Shown piece by piece: positions 26,465 to 48,289 of a DNA stretch of 64,000 nt. The position numbers and the translations under genes are program-made. The notes under the pieces are model-generated. The model did no database searches and had not been told where the DNA came from. It saw only the letters and a list, made by a program, of their open reading frames with translations. Each line of letters opens with the position of its first letter. Within the stretch, counting starts at the first letter, position 1. Source of the stretch: a phage; the sequence record NC_135732.1, one strand, 5' to 3'.

Positions 26465-26581
26465 ATGTCATCAGGTATTTATAAAATTTGCAAGTGCGGC
26501 TGTAGTTGTAATCTTCGTTGGTGCAAGGCACTAGACGATTTTATTTGGCATTGCCCTAAATGTGATGCGGAGTATCTATGA
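26465..26581 (+). CDS. small Cys-rich (zinc-ribbon-like) protein, 38 aa
   Basis: Not in ORF track (<60 aa). GGAGGTG RBS; CxC..C...HCPKC pattern; ATGA overlap with nrdG start. Confidence 0.45.
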   Translation: MSSGIYKICKCGCSCNLRWCKALDDFIWHCPKCDAEYL

Positions 26582-27051
26582 ACATTGCTGGATACACAGA
26601 AATATCTTACACCGAAGGACCAGGTATTAGAACTGCCTTGTGGGTATCTGGGTGCCCACACGCTTGCCCTGGTTGCTTTAATCAGGCATTTTGGTCAAAA
26701 GATAAGGGGAGGGAGTTCACTGAAGAAGACTTGCAAAAAATCTTGTCAGATTTAGATAACCCGTCTGTGTGCGGTATCTCTCTACTGGGTGGAGAACCCT
26801 TAGCATACTATAATGAGCCAGATATTATTAGCCTGATGGAGAAAATTAAGGAAAAATTTGGTGACAAGAAAACTATTCTTGTATATACTGGGTTCACATT
26901 TGACCATATCTCTAGTGATGTTCTTAAACTGGCTGATATCATCATTGACGGTAAGTATGTAAAAGATTTACCAACCAAGAAACCGTTCCGAGGCAGTGAT
27001 AACCAAAGAATGTTTAAAAAAGTATCAGGCGGTTGGGTTCAGGTAGACTAG
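26578..27051 (+). CDS. nrdG: anaerobic ribonucleotide reductase activating protein (radical SAM)
   Basis: Radical-SAM cluster motif CPHACPGCFN; immediately downstream of nrdD. Confidence 0.85.
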   Translation: MNIAGYTEISYTEGPGIRTALWVSGCPHACPGCFNQAFWSKDKGREFTEEDLQKILSDLDNPSVCGISLLGGEPLAYYNEPDIISLMEKIKEKFGDKKTILVYTGFTFDHISSDVLKLADIIIDGKYVKDLPTKKPFRGSDNQRMFKKVSGGWVQVD

Positions 27052-27054
27052 TTG

Positions 27055-27084
27055 TTGACAAAGCTTTGTTGAGTTGGTTATAAT
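27055..27084 (+). promoter_or_regulatory. sigma70-like promoter
   Basis: TTGACA, 18-bp spacer, TATAAT. Confidence 0.65.
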
Positions 27085-27113
27085 TGCCGTAATGAAAGCA
27101 GAGGAGGTGCCAA

Positions 27114-27227
27114 ATGGCTAAAAAAGCCTTGAAGAAGGCGTACAAGAAAGAGATTGCGCTTGAGCTTAAGAAAAAACACAAGCGTGAAAAGAAACATCAT
27201 GAAGATGAAGAGGGGGTGCAACAGTGA
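27114..27227 (+). CDS. small lysine-rich basic protein, 37 aa
   Basis: Not in ORF track. Strong RBS AGAGGAGG; overlaps the GTG start of the next gene. Confidence 0.4.
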   Translation: MAKKALKKAYKKEIALELKKKHKREKKHHEDEEGVQQ

Positions 27228-27574
27228 CACAAGAACGTATCGATTTGGCTAATAAGTTTGTAGACCTCATTTTGCCACGGTTAGTTACTCAACATGCAGA
27301 TGCTATTTCTACTAATCTTGATGGCTTACGCCTAATGCTGAATCGCACAGATGACCCTCGTATTCGGGCTGATTTAGAAGCCTCTGCCAACAAACTGGAA
27401 AAGTTCTTGCAAGTAGACACGCAAGAAGCCTTGCACAAGATTATGGTGGAAGGTTTCTCTAAAGAATTTACCATTAAAGAGCTTAAGGAGCTGATCCACC
27501 AAGAAGAGATGAATATCCGAGTTCAGGCTGTTGCAAGCAGCATGGAAGCGGCTATTGAAAAACTGTTGCAGTAA
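27224..27574 (+). CDS. hypothetical protein
   Basis: 116-aa ORF with GTG start. Confidence 0.45.
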   Translation: MTQERIDLANKFVDLILPRLVTQHADAISTNLDGLRLMLNRTDDPRIRADLEASANKLEKFLQVDTQEALHKIMVEGFSKEFTIKELKELIHQEEMNIRVQAVASSMEAAIEKLLQ

Positions 27575-27612
27575 AAGTACTTGGCACATCTCAATCTGAA
27601 AGGAGTCCCAAC

Positions 27613-28401
27613 ATGGGTCGAGCTAAAGAAACAAAACGCATGCGTGATGAAGCTAGAGAGGCTCGCAAATCTGATCGCCTGCGTAAGGCTGCTGAGAAAT
27701 TTGCTGACGAAAGAGAGCACACCGCTCCAGCTCTCCGACCAATGAATAAGAAGCAGCAAAAGTATCTTGATTATCTAGGGTCACGTAAGATTATTATTGT
27801 AAACGGTGTGTTTGGATCCGGTAAGACATTCATGGCATCTGCATATGCAGGTGATCTTCTGCGTAAGAACGAGATTGATAAGATTATTGTTGCACGTCCT
27901 TACGTTCAGACAGGAAAGACTTCAGGATTTAAACCTGGAAATGCAATGCAGAAACTGTGGCCCTATCTTCGAAGCATGATGGACACGATTTGTCGTCGTG
28001 TTGGCAAAGGTGCTTTTGCCGCAATGCTGGGAGACGGTCAGAACAGCCGTATCGAGATTTGTGAAGTTGAAAGCATTCGTGGTCGTAGTTTCGATGAGCG
28101 ATGCTTTGTCCTGATTGACGAGGCACAGCAAACTAACCCTGAAGAAATGTTGTCAATTATCACAAGGATCTCTGATCAAGCCACCCTTGTAATTATGGGT
28201 GATAATAGCCAACGTGACATCCCTGGTAAATCTGGCCTTGCATGGGTGACGGATTTCTTTACTCGTCATCCAGATCCTGAGGTTGGAATGATCAGCTTTG
28301 ATAGTCCAGACGATGTCGTTCGTTCTGGGTTGGGCCGTCAGATCGCACTCAATCTTATTGAGGATCGTGCAAATCATATTTGGACCCCTGTTTCCGAGTA
28401 A
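27613..28401 (+). CDS. phoH: PhoH-like ATPase
   Basis: Walker A GVFGSGKTF and Walker B CFVLIDEAQ; RBS AAAGGAG. Confidence 0.85.
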   Translation: MGRAKETKRMRDEAREARKSDRLRKAAEKFADEREHTAPALRPMNKKQQKYLDYLGSRKIIIVNGVFGSGKTFMASAYAGDLLRKNEIDKIIVARPYVQTGKTSGFKPGNAMQKLWPYLRSMMDTICRRVGKGAFAAMLGDGQNSRIEICEVESIRGRSFDERCFVLIDEAQQTNPEEMLSIITRISDQATLVIMGDNSQRDIPGKSGLAWVTDFFTRHPDPEVGMISFDSPDDVVRSGLGRQIALNLIEDRANHIWTPVSE

Positions 28402-28445
28402 TACAGAAGGGTGGTTATTCCACCCTTAAATATCTAAAACAGTTG

Positions 28446-29975: not shown

Positions 29976-30509
29976 ATGACTTGTGCTCGAAAACCTGATG
30001 AACAACGTAACGCCTACGATGAGTATGTGACACCGGAGTGGTGTGCAGAAGGGCTGTATGACCTTATTCCGTTCCCAGAAGACTGGACCTACTTAGAGCC
30101 TTGCAGGAATAGTGCCTCAGGTGTGTTCTACTCCCGTATGCCGTTAGGATCTGCATGGGGAGAAATCCAAGAAGGTGTTGACTATCTGAATACAGAATAC
30201 AACCATGTTGACTGTATTATCACCAACCCACCATACAGTTTGGCTCGTGAGTTTGTAGACAAGGCGTTGAAAGATGCTGACGTAGTTATTATGCTTTTGC
30301 GTCTTAATTTTCTGGAAAGCAAAGCCAGATTTGAATGGTGGCTTGATAATGCACCTACCACTGTGATCACAATATCTAAGCGTCCATCTTTTCAATCAAA
30401 TGGCAGAACTGACGGGCAAGCATATGCATATTTTGTGTGGGATAAGAAAAACCGTTTAGGCTTGCCGCCATTTATGTGGTTGGCACCACCAGAGGTAGAC
30501 CTGAAATGA
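29976..30509 (+). CDS. small phage-type DNA N6-adenine methyltransferase (Dam-like)
   Basis: Motifs YVTPEW and ITNPPYS in a ~177-aa protein. Confidence 0.65.
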   Translation: MTCARKPDEQRNAYDEYVTPEWCAEGLYDLIPFPEDWTYLEPCRNSASGVFYSRMPLGSAWGEIQEGVDYLNTEYNHVDCIITNPPYSLAREFVDKALKDADVVIMLLRLNFLESKARFEWWLDNAPTTVITISKRPSFQSNGRTDGQAYAYFVWDKKNRLGLPPFMWLAPPEVDLK

Positions 30510-30790
30510 AAATGAGTGCTAAGGACAAATTACACCAGTTAGCGCTAAAACGTCCTGTAACGCTCCCTGACGAGCTTAACTCCATTTATGATGCGATTGT
30601 AGGGGAGATACAAAATAAAGCGTTAGCAGGCTTTCTGGGGTGCGGATTTTCGATAAATCTACCCTCGCATCTCTCAGATTACTTCCCGCACATTGTTGGA
30701 GATTTAAGGGCAGGAGGTCTGCAGGTAGATGTTGTTGGCATCTCCCCAGAGAAAAATAATACGGTTGCCTACTTGACAGTAACCTGGTAG
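30506..30790 (+). CDS. hypothetical protein
   Basis: ATGA overlap with the MTase stop. Confidence 0.45.
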   Translation: MKMSAKDKLHQLALKRPVTLPDELNSIYDAIVGEIQNKALAGFLGCGFSINLPSHLSDYFPHIVGDLRAGGLQVDVVGISPEKNNTVAYLTVTW

Positions 30791-30826
30791 TTGTGTATTG
30801 TTGTTTTCAACAAGAGGGGGTCATTT

Positions 30827-31066
30827 ATGTACAAGTCATTTTCAATCTACTCAAGACAGGCGAAACACTACACAGAGATCCTGATCACTCAGAAAAAATC
30901 TGTGGAAGGTGAGTGGGAATATCACCATAAAATGTTGCGTCCAGACTGGGTTTTTGATAGACTTATTGCTATGATCCCTCTCGGAGAAGTATACCCTCTG
31001 ACAGCCCATCGCGATGCTTGGGATTTAATTGATTACATAGATTCATTTAAGGAGCCTAGATTATGA
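30827..31066 (+). CDS. hypothetical protein
   Basis: Start ATG 30827 after AGAGGGGG RBS. Confidence 0.45.
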   Translation: MYKSFSIYSRQAKHYTEILITQKKSVEGEWEYHHKMLRPDWVFDRLIAMIPLGEVYPLTAHRDAWDLIDYIDSFKEPRL

Positions 31067-31461
31067 AGATTGAGATTACTAAAGAAGGTAAGAAAGTGTC
31101 CGGCAACTATGCAACAGTAATTCGGGATTTAATGTTTGAAGCCACCAAGATCGGTACATCTAAAGTTGGTCAAACTGTTAGTGTGAAAAGTAATATCGCC
31201 ACAGGAGAGAAGGTATTCATTGTGGTCAAAGGGCAGGATCCCGTGGAAGGAACAGTGGGCCGAGGTGGCTACCTGTGCATTTCTGAAGAGCCGCGTATGT
31301 TAGTGGCTGACGCTACTATGGGTGGGAAACGTGTGTGCGAGGCGGATGAGGTAATGATTATCCAACCTGTTGATCCAGATGACCCAGCAACTTGGGTGGT
31401 AGGAAATGAAATCTTCTCTTTAGAAGAGTTATCCTTCCCAGCACCGCGCTCTGTTCAGTAA
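31063..31461 (+). CDS. hypothetical protein (starts MKIEIT)
   Basis: 132-aa ORF. Confidence 0.5.
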   Translation: MKIEITKEGKKVSGNYATVIRDLMFEATKIGTSKVGQTVSVKSNIATGEKVFIVVKGQDPVEGTVGRGGYLCISEEPRMLVADATMGGKRVCEADEVMIIQPVDPDDPATWVVGNEIFSLEELSFPAPRSVQ

Positions 31462-31498
31462 TAATTTATCTTACCAGGGACGGTAGGTAGGAGGTAGC

Positions 31499-31732
31499 AT
31501 GAAAGTTAAATTTCTTACAGATTTAGGGTACCCTTCCTTGGTTGACTGTGTTGGTAAAATTGTGGAAGCAAAACGGCTATCTGCAAACGAGAATGTTGTC
31601 CTGGTTAAAGGGAAGGATTTACTAGCTGCAGGTGCAGAGTCTGGCAGGATCTCTCCTGATTATATGTATTACCTATCTTTAAGTAATCTGCCAGAGCGAG
31701 GCGGTAAAGGCCTTGAAGTTGTGGAGGAGTGA
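31499..31732 (+). CDS. small acidic protein, MKVK-paralog family
   Basis: MKVKFLTDLGYPSLV...KGKDLLAAGA...LEVVEE; paralog of 35155 and 35372 genes. Confidence 0.5.
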   Translation: MKVKFLTDLGYPSLVDCVGKIVEAKRLSANENVVLVKGKDLLAAGAESGRISPDYMYYLSLSNLPERGGKGLEVVEE

Positions 31733-32262
31733 CAGGTATGCTTCTGATTAACTGGGAAGACCTCTATGGGGACAAAGACCCTGTTGCGTTTGTTGATCGT
31801 AGGTGGAGATACACTGAAGAACAACTGGCGGCAAAAAATTTAACTGCAAAACGCAGAAAGATCATCCAGTGCAAGTACAAATACGCACAGTTTGCTGCAA
31901 AAGTGTCTCCACAAATCGAGAGCTTTGTGCTTAAATTGTATGACGAGTACCTCAAATTCAAATTGGATTTTGTGCAGGTGTACCGTGCACAGGTACGACC
32001 AGATACCAACATATGTAGATGGGAGGTTGTTTGTGAAGGTAAAGATTTGCCGCTCAGCTTGACAATTGAGTGGCGTTATGGGTATCATGAGTGTGGTCTG
32101 TATGATATTTGGGATGTCATTGTAGATCCTGCTAAGCATCTGAACACAGAGGAGCTGGAATATATCAATAAGGTTATTCTCGATATGTTTTTCAGCTACA
32201 CACATGAAAACTCTGAGAAAGAACGGGATAATTTTCTTGACACCCTCAGCGACCATTTGTAG
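31729..32262 (+). CDS. hypothetical protein
   Basis: 177-aa ORF. Confidence 0.5.
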   Translation: MTGMLLINWEDLYGDKDPVAFVDRRWRYTEEQLAAKNLTAKRRKIIQCKYKYAQFAAKVSPQIESFVLKLYDEYLKFKLDFVQVYRAQVRPDTNICRWEVVCEGKDLPLSLTIEWRYGYHECGLYDIWDVIVDPAKHLNTEELEYINKVILDMFFSYTHENSEKERDNFLDTLSDHL

Positions 32263-32292
32263 TATACAATTTAACCTACAAAGGGAGGACCA

Positions 32293-32520
32293 ATGAGTAT
32301 AAATGTTGTGCTAATAGGTTACCTGGTAATGTCCGTTATAACAGCGGTATTCTTGACAGGTGTATGCATCGTGTCCAGACGAAGGGTGAAGTTTGATGAT
32401 TTTATCACCATCATCACTGCTGCACCTTTTTGGCCTGTTGTTATCTTCATCGTAATAATGTGCCTAGTTGATTACTACAAGAATATCAGGAAGGAGAGTA
32501 GGGATGGAGACCGCACCTAA
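32293..32520 (+). CDS. small membrane protein (two predicted TM helices)
   Basis: Hydrophobic stretches VLIGYLVMSVITAVFLTGVCIV and ITAAPFWPVVIFIVIMCLV. Confidence 0.45.
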   Translation: MSINVVLIGYLVMSVITAVFLTGVCIVSRRRVKFDDFITIITAAPFWPVVIFIVIMCLVDYYKNIRKESRDGDRT

Positions 32521-32739
32521 AACTATCTATACTGTTCTTAAAGAGATTGCGTTCTACGCAGATCTTAGCCAGGCACCTTTATGGGAAAAGAGCATGTATT
32601 TAAAATGGTGCGTTAATTTAGGGAGACCTTCCAGTGTTTCAAGCCATGTTTATTGAGATGCTATCTGGGATATTGTTACTGGTAGCCATCTTAGGTGGTG
32701 CAGTTCTGATGTATAACTATCTTGAAAAAGGAGACAGCA

Positions 32740-32925
32740 ATGGTAAAAAATAAATCTTTAGAGCAGGCTGAAAACCTTCTCCACGAGCTGGTAAAGGAGT
32801 GGAAAGTTGAATACTCAGATTTTAATGCACGAGAGGGTGAAGATTATTGGCCTACGGAGCGCTCAGAGGGCGAATGGTATCAAGATTTTATAGAGTGGTT
32901 ATATCAGACGTGCGATGAGGGGTGA
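32740..32925 (+). CDS. hypothetical protein
   Basis: Start ATG 32740 after AAAGGAGA RBS. Confidence 0.4.
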   Translation: MVKNKSLEQAENLLHELVKEWKVEYSDFNAREGEDYWPTERSEGEWYQDFIEWLYQTCDEG

Positions 32926-33392
32926 CGATGTTTGTTAAATATGTAAAAACGTGCCTCAACAGTCTTGGCAGAGAGCATTGGTACACCTTGCTTGAAAAAG
33001 GGGAAATTTTAACAAAATCTGGAAAGATAACTTTGATACCTCTTGATAGTAAAGGTAAAGACCCGTCACGACTTGTTATAGATGATTACGTTACAGGTGT
33101 GACGTTCGAGGTCTCTGTGGAGAGGTTAATACGCAGAGCTGGCGGCCCTTATGACCGAAGAGAGTATGTTTTCGATTCCGTTACAGAGATGGGGGAGCAT
33201 CCGTCTTTAATGTTCAGGATGGTAATCAGAGATATGAGGTCATCTATAGATAGGATCGTAAAGGACATTAAGGAACCTTTTAGAGTAAAAGTTAAGAAGT
33301 TTTTCGATTCTAAGATTAACATACTCGCCGTTGCACTAGGTGTAGTTCAACTTCTGTTAATTTTGCACTATTTTGAACTACTATTTAAGTAG
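32922..33392 (+). CDS. hypothetical protein, C-terminal TM helix
   Basis: 156-aa ORF. Confidence 0.5.
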   Translation: MTMFVKYVKTCLNSLGREHWYTLLEKGEILTKSGKITLIPLDSKGKDPSRLVIDDYVTGVTFEVSVERLIRRAGGPYDRREYVFDSVTEMGEHPSLMFRMVIRDMRSSIDRIVKDIKEPFRVKVKKFFDSKINILAVALGVVQLLLILHYFELLFK

Positions 33393-33454
33393 TAGTTGAG
33401 ATATGGCACAAAGGATGTGCCATAGTGAAATAAACTAAGAAAGAGGTAGAGAGA

Positions 33455-33802
33455 ATGCCAAAGATTAAAACGTTATTACTGTGGGTAGCTGTTTTAGCTT
33501 TTATAGGGTACTGGACTTGGGAAACTGAATTAAAAGATATCGGATATACCAGTCTTGAGAGCAAGGCGTGCATTGGCATAACCGATGCGTTCAGGCAAAA
33601 TGCTCTGGATCACGAATGTGTTGATGCAGATATAGATGAGAAACTGTCTAAGGACAAAGATTTTTACCATGGGCATGCTTTACTTGATAGTGGTGACACT
33701 GTAGAGTTCTGGTCGTGGTTTCGTGAAGATGGAACAATAAAAACAGCAGTAAAGATCTCTAACAAAGAGTTAATGCTGTTGCAGCAAAAGGAGGCTCAAT
33801 GA
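33455..33802 (+). CDS. hypothetical protein with N-terminal signal/TM segment
   Basis: 115-aa ORF. Confidence 0.5.
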   Translation: MPKIKTLLLWVAVLAFIGYWTWETELKDIGYTSLESKACIGITDAFRQNALDHECVDADIDEKLSKDKDFYHGHALLDSGDTVEFWSWFREDGTIKTAVKISNKELMLLQQKEAQ

Positions 33803-34086
33803 TCTGGATATCCTATGCTGATGGCACCATGCTGTATACTGCAGGTACCAGATATGAAGTTCAGGAGAACGATAAAAAATTTATCGTAAAAACATTTGAC
33901 AAGGACGACAACCTTTTGCTAGAATTGACTTACAAAGTTGGAGAGGTATCCAATATCCAGTTGGATTGTGGTCATAAAGATAATCCACTCAAAAAACCTG
34001 GAGTAGGTAAGGCTTCAGAAGAACGTCTGTCTCGTATTGCAGAAAGCGTTTCTCCCCAAAAATCTAAGAAGAGGACTAGAAAATGA
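33799..34086 (+). CDS. hypothetical protein
   Basis: 95-aa ORF. Confidence 0.5.
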   Translation: MIWISYADGTMLYTAGTRYEVQENDKKFIVKTFDKDDNLLLELTYKVGEVSNIQLDCGHKDNPLKKPGVGKASEERLSRIAESVSPQKSKKRTRK

Positions 34087-34277
34087 AAAACTTACGTTTT
34101 AACACTTATTACTACAACACATTGAATGATTTGTATTATATTGTTCGAAGTAAAAGTCCTGAAACAGTCCTATTCTGCCGCGAACCTTTCAAAGGGGAGG
34201 AAGTAGAGTCTGAGATGAATGTTAGCCAGATCACCTCTTTGTTGCTCTCAGGCGCAATGGAAGAAGCAATATTCTAA
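34083..34277 (+). CDS. hypothetical protein
   Basis: 64-aa ORF. Confidence 0.4.
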   Translation: MKNLRFNTYYYNTLNDLYYIVRSKSPETVLFCREPFKGEEVESEMNVSQITSLLLSGAMEEAIF

Positions 34278-34296
34278 ACCGGGCGGGAGGGTTTTT

Positions 34297-34482
34297 ATGA
34301 AGCACTATTGTCTGTCTGGTAGAATGGGTGCAGATTGTGATTGGGTTTTCTTAAAACTTGTCAGTATTCGAGAGTTCATCCCAGAGGAAGAGCAAGAAAG
34401 TGAGCTGATGTCATGGATCAACCATTACGGTAACACTTTTCGGCATGTTAAGGTAGAAGAGTTGCCAGGCGAGGCTGATTGA
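34297..34482 (+). CDS. hypothetical protein
   Basis: Track ORF trimmed to ATG 34297 after GGGAGGG. Confidence 0.4.
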   Translation: MKHYCLSGRMGADCDWVFLKLVSIREFIPEEEQESELMSWINHYGNTFRHVKVEELPGEAD

Positions 34483-34577
34483 CTATGATTGCATCAATAT
34501 TAACGTTTATGGGTGGCGTGTCATTCGGATTCATTGTTTGCCTATTTATAGTGATTATGTCTATGCGGGGCTGAATT

Positions 34578-36043: not shown

Positions 36044-36334
36044 ATGATGGATTTAATTCTAAATATTGATAACGCAGAAGAGTTTAAAGACGATGGTGTA
36101 ACAAGCATGGACAAACCCTGCTCTGCTAAGGTTGACTCAAAATGGACCTACAAGTTTGACGGAGAGATCTTCGCAAATGATGAGAAGGTTGTAGATGCTG
36201 CAGCCATTTTAAACGCTCTAGGGTACGACCCTGTGAATTCTTTGATCAAGGATCCTGTTGAGTTTGCAGAGTATGTTCGAAAAATGGCAGATCTTGCTGT
36301 GGATATTTTAAAAACTATCGACAACAAGCTGTAA
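36044..36334 (+). CDS. hypothetical acidic protein
   Basis: 96-aa ORF. Confidence 0.5.
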   Translation: MMDLILNIDNAEEFKDDGVTSMDKPCSAKVDSKWTYKFDGEIFANDEKVVDAAAILNALGYDPVNSLIKDPVEFAEYVRKMADLAVDILKTIDNKL

Positions 36335-36340
36335 AAACTG

Positions 36341-36369
36341 TTGACACAACGCTTCAGATTTAGTATCAT
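36341..36369 (+). promoter_or_regulatory. sigma70-like promoter upstream of the HPF homolog
   Basis: TTGACA, 17-bp spacer, TATCAT. Confidence 0.6.
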
Positions 36370-36418
36370 TGTTTTCAAAGAGAGATAGTTATTCCCTCTT
36401 CCTTAAAAGGAACACGTT

Positions 36419-37146: not shown

Positions 37147-37237
37147 TCCTGCTTGGATTAGCATACTTCCTCGCTAAGGAAGATTTGTAATTATTTGTGG
37201 GAAAGGAATCCCAATATCTTACCAGAGGTGATATTAT

Positions 37238-38233: not shown

Positions 38234-38309
38234 TTTTCTTGCACACAGGTGTTGACAACGCCAACCCTGTGTGAAATAATACCTTCATCTTAACAAGACA
38301 GGAGACCGA

Positions 38310-38570
38310 TTGATGAAGATTAAATTGAAAAACCTTGAAACGGCAGAGATTCAGGACGGTGTTGATTTCCGTTCTAAAGATGGTGACATCTTAGAGGTAA
38401 ATATTCCAACCTACGAGCTGATCAAAGGTTTTGGCAACGTCCCCGAGGAAGGTATCGCAGACGTTCTTCTAATGTTAATCGTTAGTGGGACAGTGTTCTT
38501 GGGTGAAGGTGAGAACGCTATTGCAATCCCAAGCCATTTTTATGAAGTAGTTGACGAAGAGGTGCTGTAA
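38310..38570 (+). CDS. small acidic protein, paralog family (ends YEVVDEEVL)
   Basis: Promoter-like TTGACA-17-AATAAT at 38252-38280 upstream. Confidence 0.5.
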   Translation: MMKIKLKNLETAEIQDGVDFRSKDGDILEVNIPTYELIKGFGNVPEEGIADVLLMLIVSGTVFLGEGENAIAIPSHFYEVVDEEVL

Positions 38571-38921
38571 ATGAAAGTAGAAATTACTGGTTTTGATGTG
38601 AATGTGGTTCCGGAAGATATTTTAGCTAAACTCCCGGAAGGTTTTGGTAACGGTGTTGTGGTGGATGCTGTTCCTCCTACCAAAGACATTCTGCTGCAGT
38701 ATGGTGTAGCAGAGGAAGATGTCGATAAAGTTCTTACAATGATGGCAATCGATCGTGTTGTCGTTGTTAAAGGTCTCGATAATTTTGAGAGTGATCCCCT
38801 GATTATTCGTGGAGATGACTATAAAATCATCGATAATGAAGGCCAAGAGTTCTATGAGCCTTGTGCAGAAGATATTCTTAGCTTATTACTGGAAGCAGGT
38901 ACCGAAGAGGAGGACGAATAA
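38571..38921 (+). CDS. small acidic protein (starts MKVEITGFDV)
   Basis: 116-aa ORF. Confidence 0.5.
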   Translation: MKVEITGFDVNVVPEDILAKLPEGFGNGVVVDAVPPTKDILLQYGVAEEDVDKVLTMMAIDRVVVVKGLDNFESDPLIIRGDDYKIIDNEGQEFYEPCAEDILSLLLEAGTEEEDE

Positions 38922-39250
38922 TGAAGATTGACCCGTTACTGAAGGCTCGTGCAGAAAAAGCGTACACCATTAAGCTGACCAACCTGGTTCCTACTTGTCA
39001 TCCAGATGTAGGTTGGCCTGAAGGTCTGGTAGAGGGGACTGTAACAGCTGCATACCTCCCTAACATCAAATACCTTATGGAAATCTTGGAGCTGGATGAG
39101 GAAACGGCAGAAGAGTTCCAGTTGGACATGAAACAAAGTGGGACTCTGGTTATTCACGGGTGGTATAATACTAAAGACGCAGAAGACCCTCTTGTAACTT
39201 CTAATCTGGCATATGAAATCTTAGGACCTTTGAACCTGGGGGAAGACTAA
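38921..39250 (+). CDS. small acidic protein
   Basis: 109-aa ORF. Confidence 0.5.
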   Translation: MKIDPLLKARAEKAYTIKLTNLVPTCHPDVGWPEGLVEGTVTAAYLPNIKYLMEILELDEETAEEFQLDMKQSGTLVIHGWYNTKDAEDPLVTSNLAYEILGPLNLGED

Positions 39251-39537
39251 TGAAAGATCTGGTTAAGATTAAGATTAAAGATACCAACGGCGAACTCAGC
39301 CATTTTGGAATTAATGATGGTGACGAGCTGATCGCACACCTGCCTACCAAGGAAGTTGTAAGCAAAGCAGTTGCCGGAGAAGAAGATGCAATGCAGGCTG
39401 CAGGTGTGGATGAAAACTATGTAGCCATGTGCATGTGCCGAGACCAGGTTGTTCTGTATAAAGCGTATCGACCAAACGGAGCCACGGAGTGGCTTGTATT
39501 CCGACCCGAAGGATATGAAATCTTAGAGGCACTATGA
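39250..39537 (+). CDS. small acidic protein
   Basis: 95-aa ORF. Confidence 0.5.
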   Translation: MKDLVKIKIKDTNGELSHFGINDGDELIAHLPTKEVVSKAVAGEEDAMQAAGVDENYVAMCMCRDQVVLYKAYRPNGATEWLVFRPEGYEILEAL

Positions 39538-39626
39538 TAAATCTTGCCAAGGTTGCAACGGTACTGTTAATTATTTGCTGGTCAGTAACCTTAACACTGT
39601 GTCTTGTATTTCAGTAAGGTGCTTAT

Positions 39627-39890
39627 ATGAACATCCTGATGTGGGTTGTAGCAGTGGCGTTTGTTGCATGTTTTTGCTGCTGGGTTGCGGTGAGGATTTC
39701 TGTAGCTACCCTTCGGAAGTTGGGGTTCTCAGAGTGGGATATTAATATCCTTTCTTTTCGCAATGAAACAATCTCAGCCGCCCTGCTCTGTAAGAAATTC
39801 AAGTGGGAACCTTGCGAGGTCATGAACTATCTAAGAACGGGAGATATCCCTGAAAGATTTAAAAAAGTTCTTGACGACAAGGATAAATGA
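39627..39890 (+). CDS. small membrane protein
   Basis: N-terminal TM helix WVVAVAFVACFCCWVAV. Confidence 0.45.
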   Translation: MNILMWVVAVAFVACFCCWVAVRISVATLRKLGFSEWDINILSFRNETISAALLCKKFKWEPCEVMNYLRTGDIPERFKKVLDDKDK

Positions 39891-40045
39891 TAGTATAGTG
39901 ACTAACAAGAGGTGAGGAATGACTGATTTTACTGAAGCTTTAATGATGGCCTTGTCTGTTTTAGCGCTATCGGTGTGTTTTGGGGCGTTATTCACATCTC
40001 TGGTTAAAGTTTTACATACAGTATTATTACCCAAGGAGCGCAGTA

Positions 40046-40297
40046 ATGACGAAGATTGACTTGAATGCTGGCGATCATGTTGTTGTCAAATGCATTGGAG
40101 ATTATCTTGGATTCACAATCGGCAATACTTACGAGGCGGTAGTGGCGAAGGTTTACTATGATAAAGTCCTCAGTCTTGTATTTGACTGCGATGATGATGG
40201 GGATGACCGATACGTCTGTGAGGTGCTGGCACGAGACGATAGTGAAGACCAGAAATTCCTGGTTATTGAACTGAACGGTATTTTTGTAGAACGTTAA
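40046..40297 (+). CDS. hypothetical acidic protein
   Basis: Start ATG 40046 after AAGGAG RBS. Confidence 0.45.
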   Translation: MTKIDLNAGDHVVVKCIGDYLGFTIGNTYEAVVAKVYYDKVLSLVFDCDDDGDDRYVCEVLARDDSEDQKFLVIELNGIFVER

Positions 40298-40325
40298 TTT
40301 AAAACAACATAAGGAGACTCTTACT

Positions 40326-40631
40326 ATGGCTAAATCTAAAGTTGAACTGTTCACCTCTCTTCCTTCTGACACTGCAGAGCGTGATCGCCTTCGCAAAACA
40401 ATCGAAGAACTGGTAGAACTCCAACTTCAGATTAAAGATCTGAAAGATGCCATTAAGGATATCATTCTCGTTGAGAAGCAGGATCACCTGTATTCTCCTA
40501 AATTCATCAAATCTCTGGTGGCTACCGAGTTCGATATTCGCTATGAGGCTGAAAAACGTCGCGCTAAAATCGAAGAAGAGGTTGAGCACATGTCTGAGGC
40601 AGACATTCTGTTCAAACGCTCTGTAGAATAA
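40326..40631 (+). CDS. hypothetical coiled-coil protein
   Basis: 101-aa ORF followed by a strong terminator. Confidence 0.5.
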   Translation: MAKSKVELFTSLPSDTAERDRLRKTIEELVELQLQIKDLKDAIKDIILVEKQDHLYSPKFIKSLVATEFDIRYEAEKRRAKIEEEVEHMSEADILFKRSVE

Positions 40632-40635
40632 TGAC

Positions 40636-40663
40636 AAAGAGGGGGGCTTGGGCCCCTCTTTTT
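40636..40663 (+). terminator. rho-independent terminator
   Basis: AGAGGGGGGC-ttg-GGCCCCTCT followed by TTTTTT. Confidence 0.7.
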
Positions 40664-40686
40664 TCTATCTATGAAGGAGATTTGAG

Positions 40687-41013
40687 ATGGGTATACCGAT
40701 TACTGTAAAAGAGCTAAATGAACGTGATGCAGGTGGTCTATGGCCTGCACGAAAAATCCGCTGCGTCTATATGAAAGAGAATCTTGAACATCTTGATCAA
40801 CAGATAAAGGTCGGCGATATTTTCGAGGTCTTCTATTCCAATCGTCGCAACTGGGAAACCATTCAACCTTCCGGTTTTGTTCTTGCTAAGCTCGACACTG
40901 GAGAAGTGATTATCCCAGGGTTGGATATTGTCTTCGAAATTATCCAGGAGTGGGATCCGGATAAGATTAGATACGAAGAGTTATTCGGTAAAGGTATTAT
41001 CAAACCTGTGTGA
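40687..41013 (+). CDS. hypothetical protein
   Basis: 108-aa ORF with GGAGA RBS. Confidence 0.5.
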   Translation: MGIPITVKELNERDAGGLWPARKIRCVYMKENLEHLDQQIKVGDIFEVFYSNRRNWETIQPSGFVLAKLDTGEVIIPGLDIVFEIIQEWDPDKIRYEELFGKGIIKPV

Positions 41014-41321
41014 GGTGGATTATGTCTACAAAGGCGGCTAAATACTCTTACATGCCATCAACCTCTGCAGAGGTAGACTTTAGTTTCGATGTGTTTCCAC
41101 TGTTTGAGGTGGTTCTGGCATACCCAACAATACTATCTACTCCTGAATCACTTGTGCCTGTTAAATTGCAGAACGCTATGCATTCTATGCACTACAACAA
41201 TAAATGTAGGCACAGATGGTGTCAGGACGAGGAAAAAGATTTAGATAGTTTGAGAGATTTTGACAGTCACCTTTTGACACCTTTCAGCTACTCCAACCTT
41301 GATAAGCCCTCATGGGTATAG
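41010..41321 (+). CDS. hypothetical protein
   Basis: 103-aa ORF. Confidence 0.45.
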   Translation: MRWIMSTKAAKYSYMPSTSAEVDFSFDVFPLFEVVLAYPTILSTPESLVPVKLQNAMHSMHYNNKCRHRWCQDEEKDLDSLRDFDSHLLTPFSYSNLDKPSWV

Positions 41322-41345
41322 CAAAATATCAAATTTAAGACACCT

Positions 41346-41372
41346 AGGACGCTCTGTGGCGTCCTTTTCTTT
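41346..41372 (+). terminator. rho-independent terminator
   Basis: AGGACGC-tctgt-GGCGTCCT followed by TTTCTTT. Confidence 0.6.
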
Positions 41373-41534
41373 ATCTGGTGCACGATTGCATACCTTGGAC
41401 AGATAATCTCATTACAGAGCGTTTAAGAGCTTCCTACAAACAAATCTCTCTTTCGAGCGTAGCGAGAACGCACGTCCGTTTTGACCCAAATCACCATACG
41501 CTCGGATTTTAACCAAACCCTCGCGGCGTTTCTG

Positions 41535-41563
41535 TTGACACATTACCGCTCTCGTGATAGTAT
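41535..41563 (+). promoter_or_regulatory. sigma70-like promoter
   Basis: TTGACA, 17-bp spacer, TAGTAT. Confidence 0.55.
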
Positions 41564-41583
41564 CCACACATCGTTTGGAGAAT

Positions 41584-41685
41584 ATGGAATACACAATGAG
41601 AACATTGTCTGAAGTTTTAGTGGTGATCCTGATGATCATTACATCCATAGCGGCTGTTGCCGGAATACTCACAGGTGGAACATGA
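41584..41685 (+). CDS. small hydrophobic protein, 33 aa
   Basis: Not in ORF track. GGAGAA RBS; ATGA overlap with the next ORF. Confidence 0.35.
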   Translation: MEYTMRTLSEVLVVILMIITSIAAVAGILTGGT

Positions 41686-41897
41686 TCAACACACATGCAT
41701 CTGAAGAGACATCCGAAGGAGTGACGACCATATGTAACCTGGCTGAGCCAGTGAAAGAGGAAAACTTCGATTCTGAAGATTCTCCATCTTCGCTCCAGGT
41801 AGACCCTGAGGCTGATGACCTGACGTGGGAGGACATCGTAGACATCTGGTTCTCTATTATGCCTGAGCACGAAGAGTTCAGAGGTGGTAGACTATGA
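41682..41897 (+). CDS. hypothetical acidic protein
   Basis: 71-aa ORF. Confidence 0.4.
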   Translation: MINTHASEETSEGVTTICNLAEPVKEENFDSEDSPSSLQVDPEADDLTWEDIVDIWFSIMPEHEEFRGGRL

Positions 41898-42017
41898 AGC
41901 ACCGAGCCCACACAGGTTCCTCATGCTAAAGCATGACCTGAAGAGGCAAACGTGCATAATTCCTGTGCATTGAAACGTATAAACCCTGTTCACACTCTCA
42001 TTCACAGAGGAGATTTC

Positions 42018-42233
42018 ATGAAGATAGAAATATTTGGTGGGGCTGACAACACTCGTGGCCTGATTTACCTTGAATTCGATGAATCATACCTGCCAGAGGT
42101 GTTAAATATAGACTCTGTTGCTGAGGCTTTGGGAGTAAACCCTAAAGAACTCCACTCTTGTGCTGAGATCGATGGTTGGGAAGAGACCATGAACATTGAT
42201 TTCAGTGAAGTAGAGGATGAACCGCTGGACTGA
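42018..42233 (+). CDS. small acidic protein (starts MKIEIFGG)
   Basis: Start ATG 42018 after GAGGAGA RBS. Confidence 0.45.
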   Translation: MKIEIFGGADNTRGLIYLEFDESYLPEVLNIDSVAEALGVNPKELHSCAEIDGWEETMNIDFSEVEDEPLD

Positions 42234-43699
42234 CACACAATTAGCTGCCCGGCTAAAGTGCTGGAAGCGCACCTATAACACATATTTCAACTAAATTTCC
42301 CACCACCACAATCACTTACCTACCACACGTGACTGTTTGCTTGTTTAGTGAGCAGTCATGCCTTGACATTCTTGCCTATCCTGATAAAATTAAGTTCTTC
42401 TCTTTTCTTTTACCGAGTAATTCGGGTTTTCTGTTCTCTTCGGTTTGAAGGGGTATGGAGATACACCTGAGTGAACAGGGTGAACAACCGAACCATTAGC
42501 TATGGCATTAGCATGGCGAAGCGGACGGGTGACGAAAGAGGGGCCGGAGGACACCAGTCACTGCCATATGATATATGGGTGATAACCTGAAGAGTCTGAA
42601 TAAGTGTTTAAGTACCAGTCAGAGGAAAAGGTGAATGGTAGCCGAAGGGGGAGGGGGGGTTTCTTGTATCTTTAATTTGTATATTATGTATACACTTGTA
42701 AACCAATTTCATATGAATCTGTTTACCACACAAAGTGGATTGAGACAAATATTACCTATTAAACTTGAATTATTTATAGAAAATACCACAACACACCTTA
42801 AGTCTTTGATTTTACACATAAATCTTACAGATATTCAACCTCCATATTTAACATACTTGTAACATATCCTATACCACACCTGCCTGATCAATTCCCCCAA
42901 CTACATCCTCTATATTTTCCCTGTCTGTACTACCCCATCCCCGCCGGGAGTCCCGTCATATCTGGCTTTCCAGCAAATATCACACCCACAAATATCATTG
43001 CCTGAAGAGGGTTTCATCCTCTAATACCTGCCTTACCTGAAGAGCGCTTCATACACCACGTAAATTTTTTAATTGACCTGCAATTTTCCCGTCATGACCC
43101 CCTGCCCCGCCGGAGAGGTTGGCTTTTCCCACACAGACCTGAAGAGTCAGCCAGAAATATCTGAACAGGCCCAATTCTACCACGATTTTGACCTGACCTA
43201 CAGGAGTGCTGCCAGGCGGACGAAATGGGAATACTTCTCATTCTTATAATAATTCTCAAATATCGAGGCAGTGAAGCAAATTAATAGGTGAGGCCGTTCA
43301 CATAGTGGCACAACATTTGCAATCTATTTTGTGTGGGGGAATGAGAATACCTATCATTGTGAGAACTGTTATCATTACGGGCAATTTAACATAATACCCA
43401 TTATGCGCACCACTGGCGATACATACAGGGATTGATAACATGAGTTACTGTTTACGCATATAACAATTATATTTATTACTATTTGTGTGGGATATAGTTA
43501 GCAGCCGATAGATTAGATATTGACCTGCGGACTTCTGACCGTCTAGACGTCTAAACGCCCACACAGCAAGAGTTATACATACATCGCTGAATGTAAACAG
43601 GGCCGCAAAAATGCTACCATACCAGTTTGTAAATTTTTCATGCAGCACTTGACAAAGAGGAGAAAAACTTGTCTGACATAATGTGACCTAACTGACACA

Positions 43700-43807: not shown

Positions 43808-44060
43808 CCATGCCATTCGTTTGCATGACAATAATTATACATGACAATAATCGCACTGATTATAATTAGCATGACATAATATAAAAGCAGGGCAACTATT
43901 AGCAGATCTATAGTTGCCTTGCTTGTTATGTCATGATTAACTAAATACAAGGCAACTATGATCTGATTAATAGTTTGCAGACAAACTATCACGGGGGTGA
44001 TGGTTACTGCTTTTATATTATGTCGCGACTCCGTCGCGCCATGCCATTCGTTTGCATAGT
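43808..44060. repeat. Composite element: 20-bp direct repeats flanking a 16-bp perfect inverted repeat and nested palindromes
   Basis: GCCATGCCATTCGTTTGCAT at 43808 and 44040; CATAATATAAAAGCAG (43875-43890) with its exact reverse complement at 44007-44022; palindrome GGCAACTAT...ATAGTTGCC at ~43891-43919. Confidence 0.75.
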
Positions 44061-44659
44061 TGCCTTATTGTTACAGATAAAATAATTGTATTGTTAATTA
44101 TTTCTTATCTTTCTATTAGTCATCTAATGATTTCAGTTAATATAGTAACGTACAGTAAACATTAGACGACTAAAGATTTCTCTGCTTATGGTAACCTAAC
44201 GTGACAATTCCAGACTGTTTACGAAAAATGTTGACACCTGGGCCGATTTATGTTATGCAGTTTACACGAATAATTATTTTATGCAGGTATTGACTATTCC
44301 GTTATTCTACGGTTGGAATAAATGCTTAGCAGGCTATAGAATGGCGAGCGTACGTAAATTCTGAGATCTGGCGGCTATAGTTATACTCGATTTTTCACGT
44401 AGAAAACGCTTTTGTAGTTATGTAAGTGTATGACTTATAAGAATTTTTAGTTGTTGACAAGCTATTGAAGATATGCATCAGGTTAAATTTTGTGCAAATG
44501 CTGCATTACGTGCAATTTTGGAAGGAAAAACGTGTAAAAATGGCCCTGCTACCACACAATGAAAAATTATGCAATAGTTATTTTATATGTATGTTTGTAC
44601 AGTGGGGTTAATTGCTGGCTTGTTGATTATTCCATTTGCCAGGCGGGGCCATTTGTGGT

Positions 44660-45612: not shown

Positions 45613-45865
45613 AATGTTTTCCTCTCTTCTGGTTGTTGTGTGGGCACTTTTGCCCCTTCAAGATAAATGTTACCCCACCCCATGGCAGATGTCAACGGTT
45701 TTTATAGTTCTTATATGACAGGCAGGCCCGGTGATTTGCGATCATAGTGATTCCTCCAGATCTTCCCGAACCTTTTCGGTTTATTCAGTTTATTGTTACG
45801 CTGGCGGCGTTCTGGCAGCTCTTCGGAATCGTGGGGGCGCTTTACAATTTTTTCGAAATTAATTT

Positions 45866-46213
45866 TCATAAATTTCCCCCTTTACTAATTTCAATATTTG
45901 CCTGAATCGCCCGGATACGACGTTTTATGACCTCCTGATCCTTGCAATCATATCCCCAAAAGTCTACGATCTTTGCGCCTCCGGCCTTTAGGCGGTATAG
46001 TGTTTCCTGCATCTTGTAAGCTGGGATCGGTCGCGGTGTTACCTGGTCGCCTCTCTCATCTTTGTACTTGATTATGTAGTCTTCGTTGTCGTTGAATACC
46101 CAAAATGGGTATTCTGTGAGCGCGTTGCTATCTTTTTCGTTTTTAGATTGGATCTTGTTTACAATTAAAGCCGTAGCAATAGCGCCAATAATAAAACTTG
46201 CCCCGCTGATCAT
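45866..46213 (-). CDS. hypothetical membrane-anchored protein
   Basis: N-terminal TM helix ISGASFIIGAIATALIV. Confidence 0.45.
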   Translation of the reverse strand: MISGASFIIGAIATALIVNKIQSKNEKDSNALTEYPFWVFNDNEDYIIKYKDERGDQVTPRPIPAYKMQETLYRLKAGGAKIVDFWGYDCKDQEVIKRRIRAIQANIEISKGGNL

Positions 46214-46287
46214 GTACTTTCTCCTTTCATGGTGTTAATAAATTATCTTTATAGATGGCCCTGCAACCAGGACCACCGAAAAAATAA

Positions 46288-46533
46288 CTATTTCACAATG
46301 CCTACAAAACAGATCCCGCCTTCACCTATATAAGCAATATCGGTCACTTTATAACTTGTCAAGATCTGCTTATTTAGTTCATTAATAAAATCGGTCATTG
46401 CGTTGGTGTAGTTGTCTTCCGTGTCTAAGGCATAATCCCAAGTGTACACCTTTTTACGTCCGAAGCCTTTTACCATGATACGGGCGCTTTTGGTGTTGGT
46501 AGGGGCATAATATTTGGTGATTAGTGCTGCCAT
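46288..46533 (-). CDS. hypothetical protein
   Basis: 81-aa ORF. Confidence 0.45.
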   Translation of the reverse strand: MAALITKYYAPTNTKSARIMVKGFGRKKVYTWDYALDTEDNYTNAMTDFINELNKQILTSYKVTDIAYIGEGGICFVGIVK

Positions 46534-46622
46534 GGTTTTAACTCCTATGCATTAGTTCAGTGTTAACAGTATAAAGTTTACTTTATTGATGGCCCTGGTG
46601 TCAAGGCCATCTAAAAATAAGC

Positions 46623-46964
46623 TTACTCGTTTTCTTCCAGCTCCGCAAGCTCTTCTTTTGCTTCTTCTAACTCTGTCTGTAATTCCTGGTATTCTTCATC
46701 GTCCTCAATATCCAGGCTGTCGATGTAGTCGCTAAATCCGCAGCGGTAAGCGATAGGATCTAGCTCCTTGAGGATACGCGACGGAAGAAAAGAAATGTTT
46801 CCGATCATAATTTCGCCGTAGATCTCGTCTAACCATTCATCATAGTTTTCGTCGTACTTGTCCTCGTCGATTTCAAAGTTATCGATCTTATTCTCAAGGT
46901 CTGCGATCTGTTTTTTCAGTTCAGCGATCTGCATAGCTTTTTCTGAGGCGGTCATAGTAGTCAT
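46623..46964 (-). CDS. hypothetical acidic coiled-coil protein
   Basis: 113-aa ORF. Confidence 0.5.
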   Translation of the reverse strand: MTTMTASEKAMQIAELKKQIADLENKIDNFEIDEDKYDENYDEWLDEIYGEIMIGNISFLPSRILKELDPIAYRCGFSDYIDSLDIEDDEEYQELQTELEEAKEELAELEENE

Positions 46965-47043
46965 GGTGTTTTTCTCCTTTTGTGTGTTCTGGGAAGTTTT
47001 CCCGTTTATGTGCTTATTATATCGATTTAAGTTAGCTTGTCAA

Positions 47044-47226
47044 TTAAAAGTTTAAGAAAAATTTTGCGACACCGTTGGCGCTACCCATCAACATTTGCGC
47101 CAGGATGTACCCAATGATGCAAACGATGATGGTTACCTTTGTGTGCTGGCGGGAAACATTCCCGCCTTTTGTGTCTAGTTTACTTAAATTTTGCAGCGTG
47201 TCAATGATTTTTATTCGTGGGCGCAT
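47044..47226 (-). CDS. small membrane protein
   Basis: 60-aa ORF with a hydrophobic helix. Confidence 0.35.
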   Translation of the reverse strand: MRPRIKIIDTLQNLSKLDTKGGNVSRQHTKVTIIVCIIGYILAQMLMGSANGVAKFFLNF

Positions 47227-47609
47227 GTTACAATGTGCTTTTTATAGCCCAGGTGGTCAGCAAGTGCCGACAAAAACTCTTCTTCGTAGATCCAGCCGTC
47301 GGCAGTGATCCCCATAGCATTTAATGCGCTCTCAAGTGCTGCGTTAGCTTTATCATAACCGTGACCGCTCGCCTTGCCGCCAGTATAGCCGTACTTATTG
47401 TTCTTGTTGTCGTGAATCCAAAACACGCAGTAGTGAGTGTTCCCGCTGGCGGCGGCATAATACCGGATCTCAGCTACTTCGTGCAAATTATTGTCATCGT
47501 CCAGGCCCACCAGATTATAAGCCTTGTAAAATCCACGATCACGGCGGCAGTTCTTGACATCAGAAAAAGAAAAGTCCGCATTATCAAAATTAAAGGTAGT
47601 GGTTTTCAT
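47211..47609 (-). CDS. hypothetical protein
   Basis: 132-aa ORF; no recognisable family. Confidence 0.5.
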   Translation of the reverse strand: MKTTTFNFDNADFSFSDVKNCRRDRGFYKAYNLVGLDDDNNLHEVAEIRYYAAASGNTHYCVFWIHDNKNNKYGYTGGKASGHGYDKANAALESALNAMGITADGWIYEEEFLSALADHLGYKKHIVTCAHE

Positions 47610-47673
47610 GATTTTATCCTCTTAGTGTCTTTTGTGCTTTTAGTGTATTTGGTGTCGGACTATATGTCAATAC

Positions 47674-47871
47674 TTATTTTTTATTAAACCAGTGGTTGAT
47701 CTGTCCTTTTGTCAGGGCGCAACGATTAAGCTGTTGCCGGGTATAGCTCTGACCGCGACGGAATTTATAAAGGCCTTGCCCGTTGTTGATGGTTACGTCC
47801 ACCTGGCAAACCATTTGATCGGTGACCACCTGGCGAGTGTTGCGACGTACTTTGATCCCGTATGCGTTCAT
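47674..47871 (-). CDS. hypothetical basic protein
   Basis: Track ORF trimmed to ATG 47871 after AAGAGGA RBS. Confidence 0.4.
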   Translation of the reverse strand: MNAYGIKVRRNTRQVVTDQMVCQVDVTINNGQGLYKFRRGQSYTRQQLNRCALTKGQINHWFNKK

Positions 47872-48289
47872 AAATTTATCCTCTTTACTGGTTAGTGCGG
47901 TGTTGTTCACCTTGTAGGGTAATAATACCATGATTAACCTTGTTGTCAACGATTATTTTAAATTATTTTTATGATAGAATCCACCTGCCGCCCCCGCCAG
48001 GTTAACCACCATTTTTCGTACTCTTCTTTATGTTCCCGCGCTTCTGTATCATTAATCACTACATTTCCCAGGTGAGTAGCATTACCTTTCATTTTTGTAC
48101 CTCCTCTTCAATTGTTTACCCTACAGCATGGGCCTACCAGGTTTGCAAGATTTCACCCTCTCCCACCTGGTCAGTTAGGTCCTGCCAGGCTGGCCCCGCC
48201 AGGTTGCAACGGTTAGCGCATCAGGTTAGAAAAATTTTTTGAAAAGGTGTTGACAGCGGCCCCGCCAGGGGGCACAATATACCTATCGA

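Follow-up and report, generated by a model that had tools for sequence, protein, structure and literature searches.

The stretch of phage DNA analysed here (record NC_135732.1; 64,000 nucleotides, referred to as the window) carries nine short open reading frames (ORFs), designated c1 to c9, in its central and right-hand parts (Table 1). An initial annotation had singled them out for their ribosome-binding sites and start/stop coupling, and had suggested that small membrane peptides of this kind could be holins, antiholins or host inhibitors. All nine are present in the sequence, and seven of the coordinate pairs given for them are exact. The other two need correction, since the pair 34484-34576 is out of frame and 45712-45869 is replaced by the c8 interval of Table 1, as the former is by that of c4. 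The best megablast match of the region (query 26000-48500) is phage nomo, at 98.3% identity, and almost all of the 158 phage records matched are Escherichia Vequintavirus, i.e. rV5-like myophages. On these matches the window is assigned to Vequintavirus, as an rV5-like myophage of E. coli. In rV5, the same part of the genome was described as holding '88 mainly small ORFs' plus an ORF-free stretch; c1 to c7 fall within the rV5 transcription unit of genes 82-163, which includes nucleotide-metabolism genes, and c8 and c9 within the unit 10-1-238-164 (PMC3606486).

Considered together, the nine candidates probably form a mixed set. In this reading, c1, c2, c3, c4, c6 and c7 would be genuine small genes, packed in polycistronic units and mostly coupled translationally to their neighbours, c8 a deletion remnant, c9 an unstable gene, and c5 likelier to belong to a conserved cis-acting element, a leader or operator ahead of gene 36877-37146, than to encode a functional peptide, with the membrane microproteins of the set acting as modulators. 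The existence of most of these ORFs is not new. Eight of the nine match PHROG protein families (E <= 1e-10), and their exact or near-exact products have been deposited as hypothetical proteins, so that the finding is already known at the annotation level and ordinary in kind. The same loci and frames, with near-identical products, are annotated as gp113, gp126, gp140, gp151, gp184 and gp192 in rV5 (Kropinski et al. 2013, PMC3606486) and as bas50_0160, bas50_0136 and bas50_0152 in phages of the BASEL collection. The window differs from these annotations in that its c8 is shortened and its c9 has another tail frame, whereas rV5 has a different frame annotated over c7, and c4 is mostly omitted. 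What is new is the evolutionary triage of the nine ORFs, together with a corrected start for c3, the c8 stump, the instability of c9, a link between c4 and prophages, and the conserved block at c5. The interest is mainly one of annotation quality, namely which tiny ORFs of widely used therapeutic and biocontrol E. coli phages have evolutionary support. Three of the items should not pass as normal genes: c8, a stump left by a deletion, c9, whose frame is unstable, and c5, an ORF located on a conserved element of non-coding-like character.

Table 1. Short ORFs and associated features of the window (aa, amino acids; RBS, ribosome-binding site)
Feature	Coordinates	Strand	Description	Counterpart
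c1	26465-26581	+	38 aa, Cys-rich (7 Cys + His); stop overlaps nrdG start (ATGA)	
c2	27114-27227	+	37 aa, basic, Lys-rich; GTGA-coupled to next gene	rV5 gp113
c3	32634-32753	+	39 aa, predicted single-helix membrane peptide	rV5 gp126, phrog_15251
c4	34485-34574	+	29 aa, predicted membrane peptide, MIASILTFMGGVSFGFIVCLFIVIMSMRG; exactly fills 95-nt intergenic gap	
c5	36749-36850	+	33-codon ORF, coding status doubtful	rV5 gp140, phrog_15151
Invariant block	36778-36890	+	~115 nt: 3' part of c5, spacer, RBS and first codons of 36877-37146	
Additional ORF	39534-39617	+	27 aa, hydrophobic, MINLAKVATVLLIICWSVTLTLCLVFQ; ATGA-coupled to stop of 39250-39537	
c6	39919-40059	+	46 aa, predicted membrane peptide, one hydrophobic helix, acidic C-terminus	rV5 gp151, phrog_16755
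c7	41584-41685	+	33 aa, predicted membrane peptide; ATGA-coupled to ORF 41682-41897	bas50_0136, phrog_34195
c8	45711-45869	-	52 aa, shortened T7 gp1.1-like gene	nomo_69 / rV5 gp184 (parent), phrog_8176
c9	47958-48092	-	44-aa ORF of a fast-changing early gene; tail frame variable	

Translation signals and selection on the short frames

The good ribosome-binding sites attributed to all candidates were assessed as duplex energies with the anti-Shine-Dalgarno (anti-SD) sequence, against a background of 353 ATG codons on this strand (median -2.9 kcal/mol, 15% at <= -7). The sites are strong for c1 (-11.5 kcal/mol), c2 (-13.0), c8 (-10.7) and c9 (-13.0) and moderate for c4 (-7.2), c5 (-6.9), c6 (-7.1) and c7 (-6.4), but there is none at the ATG proposed for c3, at 32646. 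Start/stop coupling was correctly noted: ATGA overlaps lie at c1/nrdG (26578-26581), at c7 and the next ORF (41682-41685), and at the upstream gene and c8 (45869-45866, minus strand). A GTGA overlap couples c2 to the next gene (27224-27227).

Selection was examined in the syntenic region of 16 Vequintavirus genomes with 86-99% identity, taken from annotated GenBank records; with a neighbouring protein as query, IMG/VR had yielded no more than a single related locus. For each candidate, 11 to 17 related genomes were aligned and the orthologous ORF was inspected genome by genome. Substitution events were scored as synonymous or non-synonymous in all three frames against Nei-Gojobori site counts, and the same test was applied, on the coding strand, to a control set of 23 small ORFs located in gaps. 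Within this set a significant synonymous excess was found only in c1, c2, c4, c7 and c8, the additional ORF at 39534-39617 being borderline, and each of the other 14 non-candidate ORFs gave P > 0.07. Candidates c3 and c6, tested apart from the set, also show the excess, whereas c5 and c9 do not. The ratio of non-synonymous to synonymous substitution rates (dN/dS) of c1, c2, c3, c4, c6 and c7 ranges from 0.06 to 0.28, indicating clear purifying selection, and the long flanking genes have values of 0.08-0.34, in their own frame only. Conservation of the reading frame in relatives, which the initial annotation had itself named as a check, thus holds for these six candidates and fails for c9.

Two of the six encode no membrane peptide. 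The c1 frame is intact in 11/11 relatives (dN/dS 0.14, P=1e-5) with all seven cysteines conserved, and of the 121 phage records found by tblastn, which are all rV5-like (Vequintavirus), 120 have it at full length. Its family is phrog_20137, and it has no Pfam match. An origin as a split-off zinc ribbon or fragment of NrdD was considered and rejected: the upstream NrdD is complete, with its own CLKCG…CPECG zinc ribbon and RVSGY glycyl-radical motif. By these features c1 is no part of NrdD, and the naming of phrog_20137 and nomo_131 as (anaerobic) ribonucleotide reductase appears to derive from proximity. A single-sequence AlphaFold2 model reached a mean confidence score (pLDDT) of 58, too low for use. 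Its composition and conservation suggest that c1 is a genus-specific Cys-rich mini-protein, probably metal-binding, that would be co-expressed with NrdD and NrdG. The nrdD gene itself is interrupted by an HNH homing-endonuclease ORF in the window (24566-25099 and 25193-26401), likewise in FV3 and WM, and is uninterrupted in rV5, ECP32 and S127.

The deepest conservation among the nine is seen for c2, which is intact in 11/11 relatives (dN/dS 0.06, P=3e-6) and matches phrog_7670 with E=2e-20. A Mydovirus and a PVP-SE1-like Salmonella phage each have a syntenic homologue of 46 aa (53-56% identity), which precedes the same neighbour and PhoH. Searched with the Salmonella-phage homologue as query, the family includes 27 metagenomic clusters with an invariant M..L.KAY.KE.A..L motif (M1 L6 K8 A9 Y10 K12 E13 A15 L18). 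The profile match and this N-terminal motif, conserved at a syntenic position, place c2 in phrog_7670; among the nine peptides, c2 alone gave a tblastn match at the loci of the Salmonella phage and the Mydovirus. It would thus be a basic, probably helical protein conserved across genera of the Vequintavirinae.

The hydrophobic character noted for c3 to c7 was confirmed: the 19-residue Kyte-Doolittle means of 2.27-2.95 fit one membrane helix each. By contrast, the suggestion of small membrane peptides does not extend to c1, c2, c8 or c9, none of which is one. The c3 frame is intact in 12/12 relatives, with an altered tail in ECP32 (dN/dS 0.06, P=8e-11). A GTG codon at 32634, 12 nt upstream of the ATG at 32646, is preceded by a site with an anti-SD energy of -8.9 kcal/mol; among the relatives this codon is either GTG or, in four of them, ATG, and conservation extends to the four extra codons that it adds. 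Translation thus probably begins at 32634 rather than 32646 and gives a product of 39 aa; among records, the start choice differs, giving 35, 39, 42 or 57 aa. The gene lies in an overlapping operon, two genes 3' of a protein with two transmembrane domains (32293-32520), the counterpart of which in rV5, gp129, was proposed as the holin by prediction only (PMC3606486).

The c6 frame, with ATG or GTG as start, is intact in 17/17 genomes (dN/dS 0.28, P=3e-4). For c7 (dN/dS 0.28, P=9e-4), 13/16 genomes have an intact frame; it is disrupted by a 70-nt insertion in ECP32 and by 5' deletions in B9-1 and S127, and c7 is thus dispensable. The longer frame of rV5 gp157 was considered as the coding frame at this position and rejected, as the synonymous excess lies in the c7 frame instead. 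A further hydrophobic ORF, at 39534-39617, fills the gap before 39627 and is absent as an annotation from every record table examined. It is intact in 16/16 genomes (dN/dS 0.33, P=0.013), and its hydropathy predicts a single-helix membrane peptide like c3 to c7. Nearby, a 44-aa ORF with a GTG start (41378-41512, plus strand) has no coding signature (17 synonymous vs 56 non-synonymous events, P=0.48); to judge from position and length, it appears to match 135-nt ORFs annotated in FV3 and the BASEL phages.

The c4 peptide and its prophage relatives

The c4 gene is inserted tightly between its neighbours: 2 nt separate the upstream stop from its ATG, and 3 nt its own stop from the ATG that follows. 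It is carried by 12/17 genomes and replaced in the other five. Among the carriers, the variable sites are distributed over the three codon positions as 7/0/9, and dN/dS is 0.24 (P=0.005). By tblastn the peptide is full-length in 90 phage records, all rV5-like, and is unannotated in most of those listed; among the records examined, only BASEL phages have it annotated (e.g. bas50_0160). It has no PHROG family. The codon-level data mark c4 as a real, under-annotated gene for a predicted membrane microprotein.

Of 5426 complete E. coli chromosomes searched, 10 have a match (75-86% identity) to a 110-nt island that consists of c4 with its junctions. Searches of E. coli DNA with window segments 30450-34449, 36200-40199 and 40200-42400 gave no comparable match, and among c3 to c7 sharing with prophages is limited to c4. 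In five E. coli prophages, the homologue always has 29 codons and lies 3' of a holin-lysozyme-Rz cassette, about 0.9 kb downstream of it, and of a 180-aa gene. It is there the first ORF of an array in which 3-5 hydrophobic ORFs of 20-36 aa stand close together ahead of terS/terL. In pairwise comparisons, the proportion of synonymous differences (pS) reaches 0.61 and that of non-synonymous differences (pN) is 0.03-0.21, with pN/pS of 0.06-0.68 for the prophage homologues; two neighbouring ORFs of the array have pN/pS of 0.23 and 0.05. The arrays resemble the window in their first ORF, the 29-codon c4 homologue, and in consisting of packed single-helix ORFs under purifying selection. They differ in belonging to temperate prophages with another genomic context, and only c4 is common to them and the window. 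In strain PAR, a perfect 14-nt direct repeat made by the Shine-Dalgarno (SD)-stop-start junction flanks c4, which suggests a route for gain or loss of the minigene; c4 thus appears to be mobile. In none of the five RefSeq prophage loci examined are the arrays annotated; they lie between the lysis cassette with the 180-aa HExxH protein and terS, at positions 6012-6348 of one locus and about 2506-2880 of the four others. Missed by standard pipelines yet conserved across lytic and temperate coliphages, the c4 family offers a small, concrete lead.

Candidates c8, c9 and c5

The c8 frame, listed as a basic 52-aa candidate, turned out to be a remnant shortened by deletion. Its residues 2-35 match PF08200, the T7 gene 1.1 protein family, with E=4.5e-11 and 43.5 bits (cut-off 21), and like the T7 protein it is small and very basic. 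The Vequintavirus protein differs in being 65 aa long, with an additional C-terminal part; the window copy lacks the last ~16 residues of the protein. The parent gene has 65 aa in 10/10 relatives, with dN/dS 0.08 and P=1e-12, so that c8, at 52 vs 65 aa, is not a full-length member of phrog_8176. Its first ~148 nt are native, to about residue 49 of 65; a change L46S falls across the junction repeat, and a new tail of 3 residues follows. The junction (45722-45736) lies within an imperfect repeat of ~15 nt, at which the sequence switches to DNA that in nomo is found at a distance of 6.39 kb, 5' of nomo_86 and the promoter of that gene. The interval removed relative to nomo, positions 19979-26354 of the nomo region used, contains minus-strand small genes that are kept in every relative examined, and no record among the 117 that match extends across the junction. 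This switch identifies c8 as a deletion stump. In terms of the alignment with nomo, a loss of 6.39 kb from one short imperfect repeat to another has cut into a conserved T7 gp1.1-like gene of 65 aa, and c8 is what remains of it.

The instability of c9 is of another kind. Among the relatives, length changes in an A-run (A5/A6/A7) and indels in a G-run give rise to at least three tails. The Trp-rich tail, for which the candidate had been noted, is one such frame variant, found in the window, Alma and typing phage 5; most other relatives have the tail MMVNLAGAAAGEF…, and further variants occur in nomo, nomine, V18 and B9-1. The locus is truncated in rV5, has an early stop in EmilHeitz and has lost its start in S127, and the lineage of the window lacks ~33 nt. 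An identical c9 peptide is encoded by phage rV5_ev146 and by one metagenome scaffold (100% identical over 601 nt). With dN/dS of 0.47 (P=0.06) in the N-terminal part and 2.4 in the tail, c9 is, as far as the alignments tell, a weakly constrained gene whose tail frame has been changed by homopolymer indels.

At c5, the coding signature expected of a small gene was not seen: dN/dS is 0.6 (P=0.26), with no synonymous excess and with changes clustered in codons 2-10. The alternative is that c5 is not a gene and that its ORF rides on a conserved cis-acting element, which could serve as a binding site for a protein or as the 5' leader of the gene that follows. Codons 11-33 have undergone one synonymous event vs 12.3 expected, and the invariant block to which they belong has 8 variable sites of 113, where a background of 0.24 predicts 27 (P=2e-6). 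In D1 and S127 (2/17), the c5 ATG is replaced by ATA on different sequence backgrounds, with the block still invariant. A conserved sigma-70-like sequence, TTGACT-16-TACAAT, lies at 36723-36750, and its -10 element overlaps the c5 ATG; transcripts from this promoter-like site would thus lack the c5 start codon. The block also carries a 7-bp inverted repeat (GATTGCA-N17-TGCAATC), a motif that occurs once in the window; paralogous blocks are absent both from the rest of the window and from other genera. Against this alternative, the c5 ORF is open in 17/17 genomes, many records annotate it, and it has the moderate SD given above. RNA folding predicted for the region does not surpass that of shuffled sequences (z = -1.27), and a whole-window Rfam scan, which found tRNAs only, gave no family reaching its gathering score at the block. 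Between a translated peptide and a cis-acting element with a passenger ORF, the choice is about even, and we would put the case for the latter no higher than half. Of the genes around the block, 36877-37146 (plus strand) has no Pfam match, although several records give it the name 'sigma 54 modulation factor'; the homologue of S30AE/HPF (PF02482) is 36419-36739 only.

Possible roles of the membrane peptides and other observations

AcrZ, MgrB, KdpF, CydX and PmrR are small membrane proteins of bacteria that modulate larger complexes. Like them, the phage peptides have a single helix and are encoded inside operons, within a similar size range (~29-49 aa); they share no sequence similarity, so that the comparison is one of analogy and not of membership. 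By this analogy, c3, c4, c6, c7 and the additional ORF at 39534-39617 may encode single-pass inner-membrane microproteins that bind and modulate larger host or phage membrane proteins. The absence or disruption of c4 and c7 in some relatives suggests that such microproteins are accessory rather than essential.

A role in lysis, raised initially for the whole set, was compared with the properties of known lysis proteins. Holins usually have a hydrophilic, highly charged C-terminal domain, are usually longer and usually adjoin the endolysin gene. In the window the endolysin lies at 9401-9868, and the nearest candidate starts at 26465, the separation being ~17-38 kb over the set; no candidate stands beside the endolysin or in a lysis cassette. 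Each of c3 to c7 has one hydrophobic stretch of ~19 residues and none has two; holins have at least one helix, and usually 2-3 (PMC3606486). Charged C-terminal tails are absent from c4 (…MSMRG), c5 (…LGYGY) and c7 (…LTGGT), and are short in c3 (EKGDSNGKK) and c6 (PKERSNDED). Nor do the peptides resemble antiholins of the dual-start or RI type, which are holin isoforms extended at the N-terminus or membrane-anchored proteins whose periplasmic domain binds the holin: each candidate is an ORF of its own, 29-46 aa long, and has almost nothing outside the helix. In common with lambda S105/S107, T4 T and RI, and the pinholins, they are small phage inner-membrane proteins, and c3 and c4 are near lysis genes in some genomes, but their single helix, small size and distance from the endolysin set them apart. 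None of the candidates thus qualifies as a holin or antiholin by the usual criteria.

A broader function in lysis control, as holin partners, antiholins or timing modulators, has been considered chiefly for c3 and c4. It draws on the position of c3, which in its overlapping operon follows the proposed rV5 holin at a distance of two genes, and on the five prophages in which c4 homologues always follow holin-lysozyme-Rz and the 180-aa gene. This context is a weak lysis-related hint, given that the gp129 assignment is itself a prediction and that the prophage stretch between lysis and terminase genes commonly holds unrelated accessory genes; with a single helix in 29-46 aa, no dual-start motif noted, three uncharged tails and a distant endolysin, lysis control appears unlikely. 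The peptides might instead kill or shut off the host by depolarising its inner membrane early in infection, as type I toxins such as Hok, Ibs or TisB would. Size, hydrophobicity and the single helix agree with this, as does the accessory distribution of c4 and c7. Type I toxins are small hydrophobic peptides whose translation is repressed and whose gene has an antisense RNA over or beside it; the candidates share the peptide property only, and no antisense RNA or characteristic fold for regulation was noticed, though no search aimed at either was made. Normal SDs and translational coupling in long operons with metabolic genes are, however, unlike the tight repression of toxins, and a Pfam search revealed no similarity to known toxin families, which makes a toxin function quite improbable. 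Whether the ORFs are genes at all can also be questioned: they could be chance frames in spacers, made gene-like only by annotators' calls. At a minimum length of 25 aa, as many as 323 ORFs overlap the region, so that presence of an ORF alone is not evidence; PHROG membership mirrors annotation only, and the c9 tail, c5 and the annotated ORF 41378-41512 are all without a coding signature. Against this stand the synonymous excess of c1, c2, c3, c4, c6 and c7 in their own frame only, the preservation of these frames across 11-17 genomes, and the conservation of c2 and c4 at far greater evolutionary distance. For six of the nine, chance frames are largely refuted by the codon-level tests, and as a general account they are very improbable.

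The mixed-set reading remains the preferred one, and several points weigh against it. The selection tests, on 90-140 nt, use 13-37 substitution events only, and these are not fully independent, given the kinship of the sequences compared. Literature searches gave no transcriptome, ribosome-profiling or small-protein proteomics for Vequintavirus, and the role proposed for the membrane peptides is an analogy only. Part of the homopolymer variation at c9 could be sequencing error in public records, and c5, with its open frame and SD of -6.9 kcal/mol, could still be translated. A bolder proposal would make c4 a mobile 29-codon minigene, swapped with its SD/stop-start junctions between lytic Vequintavirus and temperate prophages and representing an array-heading, hitherto unrecognised class of microproteins that control lysis timing or superinfection exclusion; separately, the c5 block would be a new cis-regulatory leader of the gene after the ribosome-hibernation-factor homologue. 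That both parts should hold is speculative and, in our view, rather doubtful.

Some observations concern other parts of the DNA. Over the 24 kb surveyed, conservation is highest in two stretches of the ORF-free region (42340-42660 and 43873-44073, 0-5% variable sites). This region also bears iteron-like clusters in which GGCAACTAT/ATAGTTGCC is repeated in direct and inverted orientation. A permissive Rfam search gave no match there; the region may act in the control or the origin of replication. At 13-111 (minus strand), beside tRNA-Ser, tRNA-Tyr and tRNA-Arg, ARAGORN predicts a tRNA-like gene of 99 nt, its four-base anticodon (atcc) given as undetermined, which Rfam scores as a weak tRNA (35.5 bits). 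Finally, about 20 GenBank records of the MG0656xx series named 'Campylobacter phage' are Vequintavirus genomes with 95-98% identity to the phage of the window. One of them, MG065646 (D1), is flagged UNVERIFIED, and the Campylobacter host label of such records is probably wrong.

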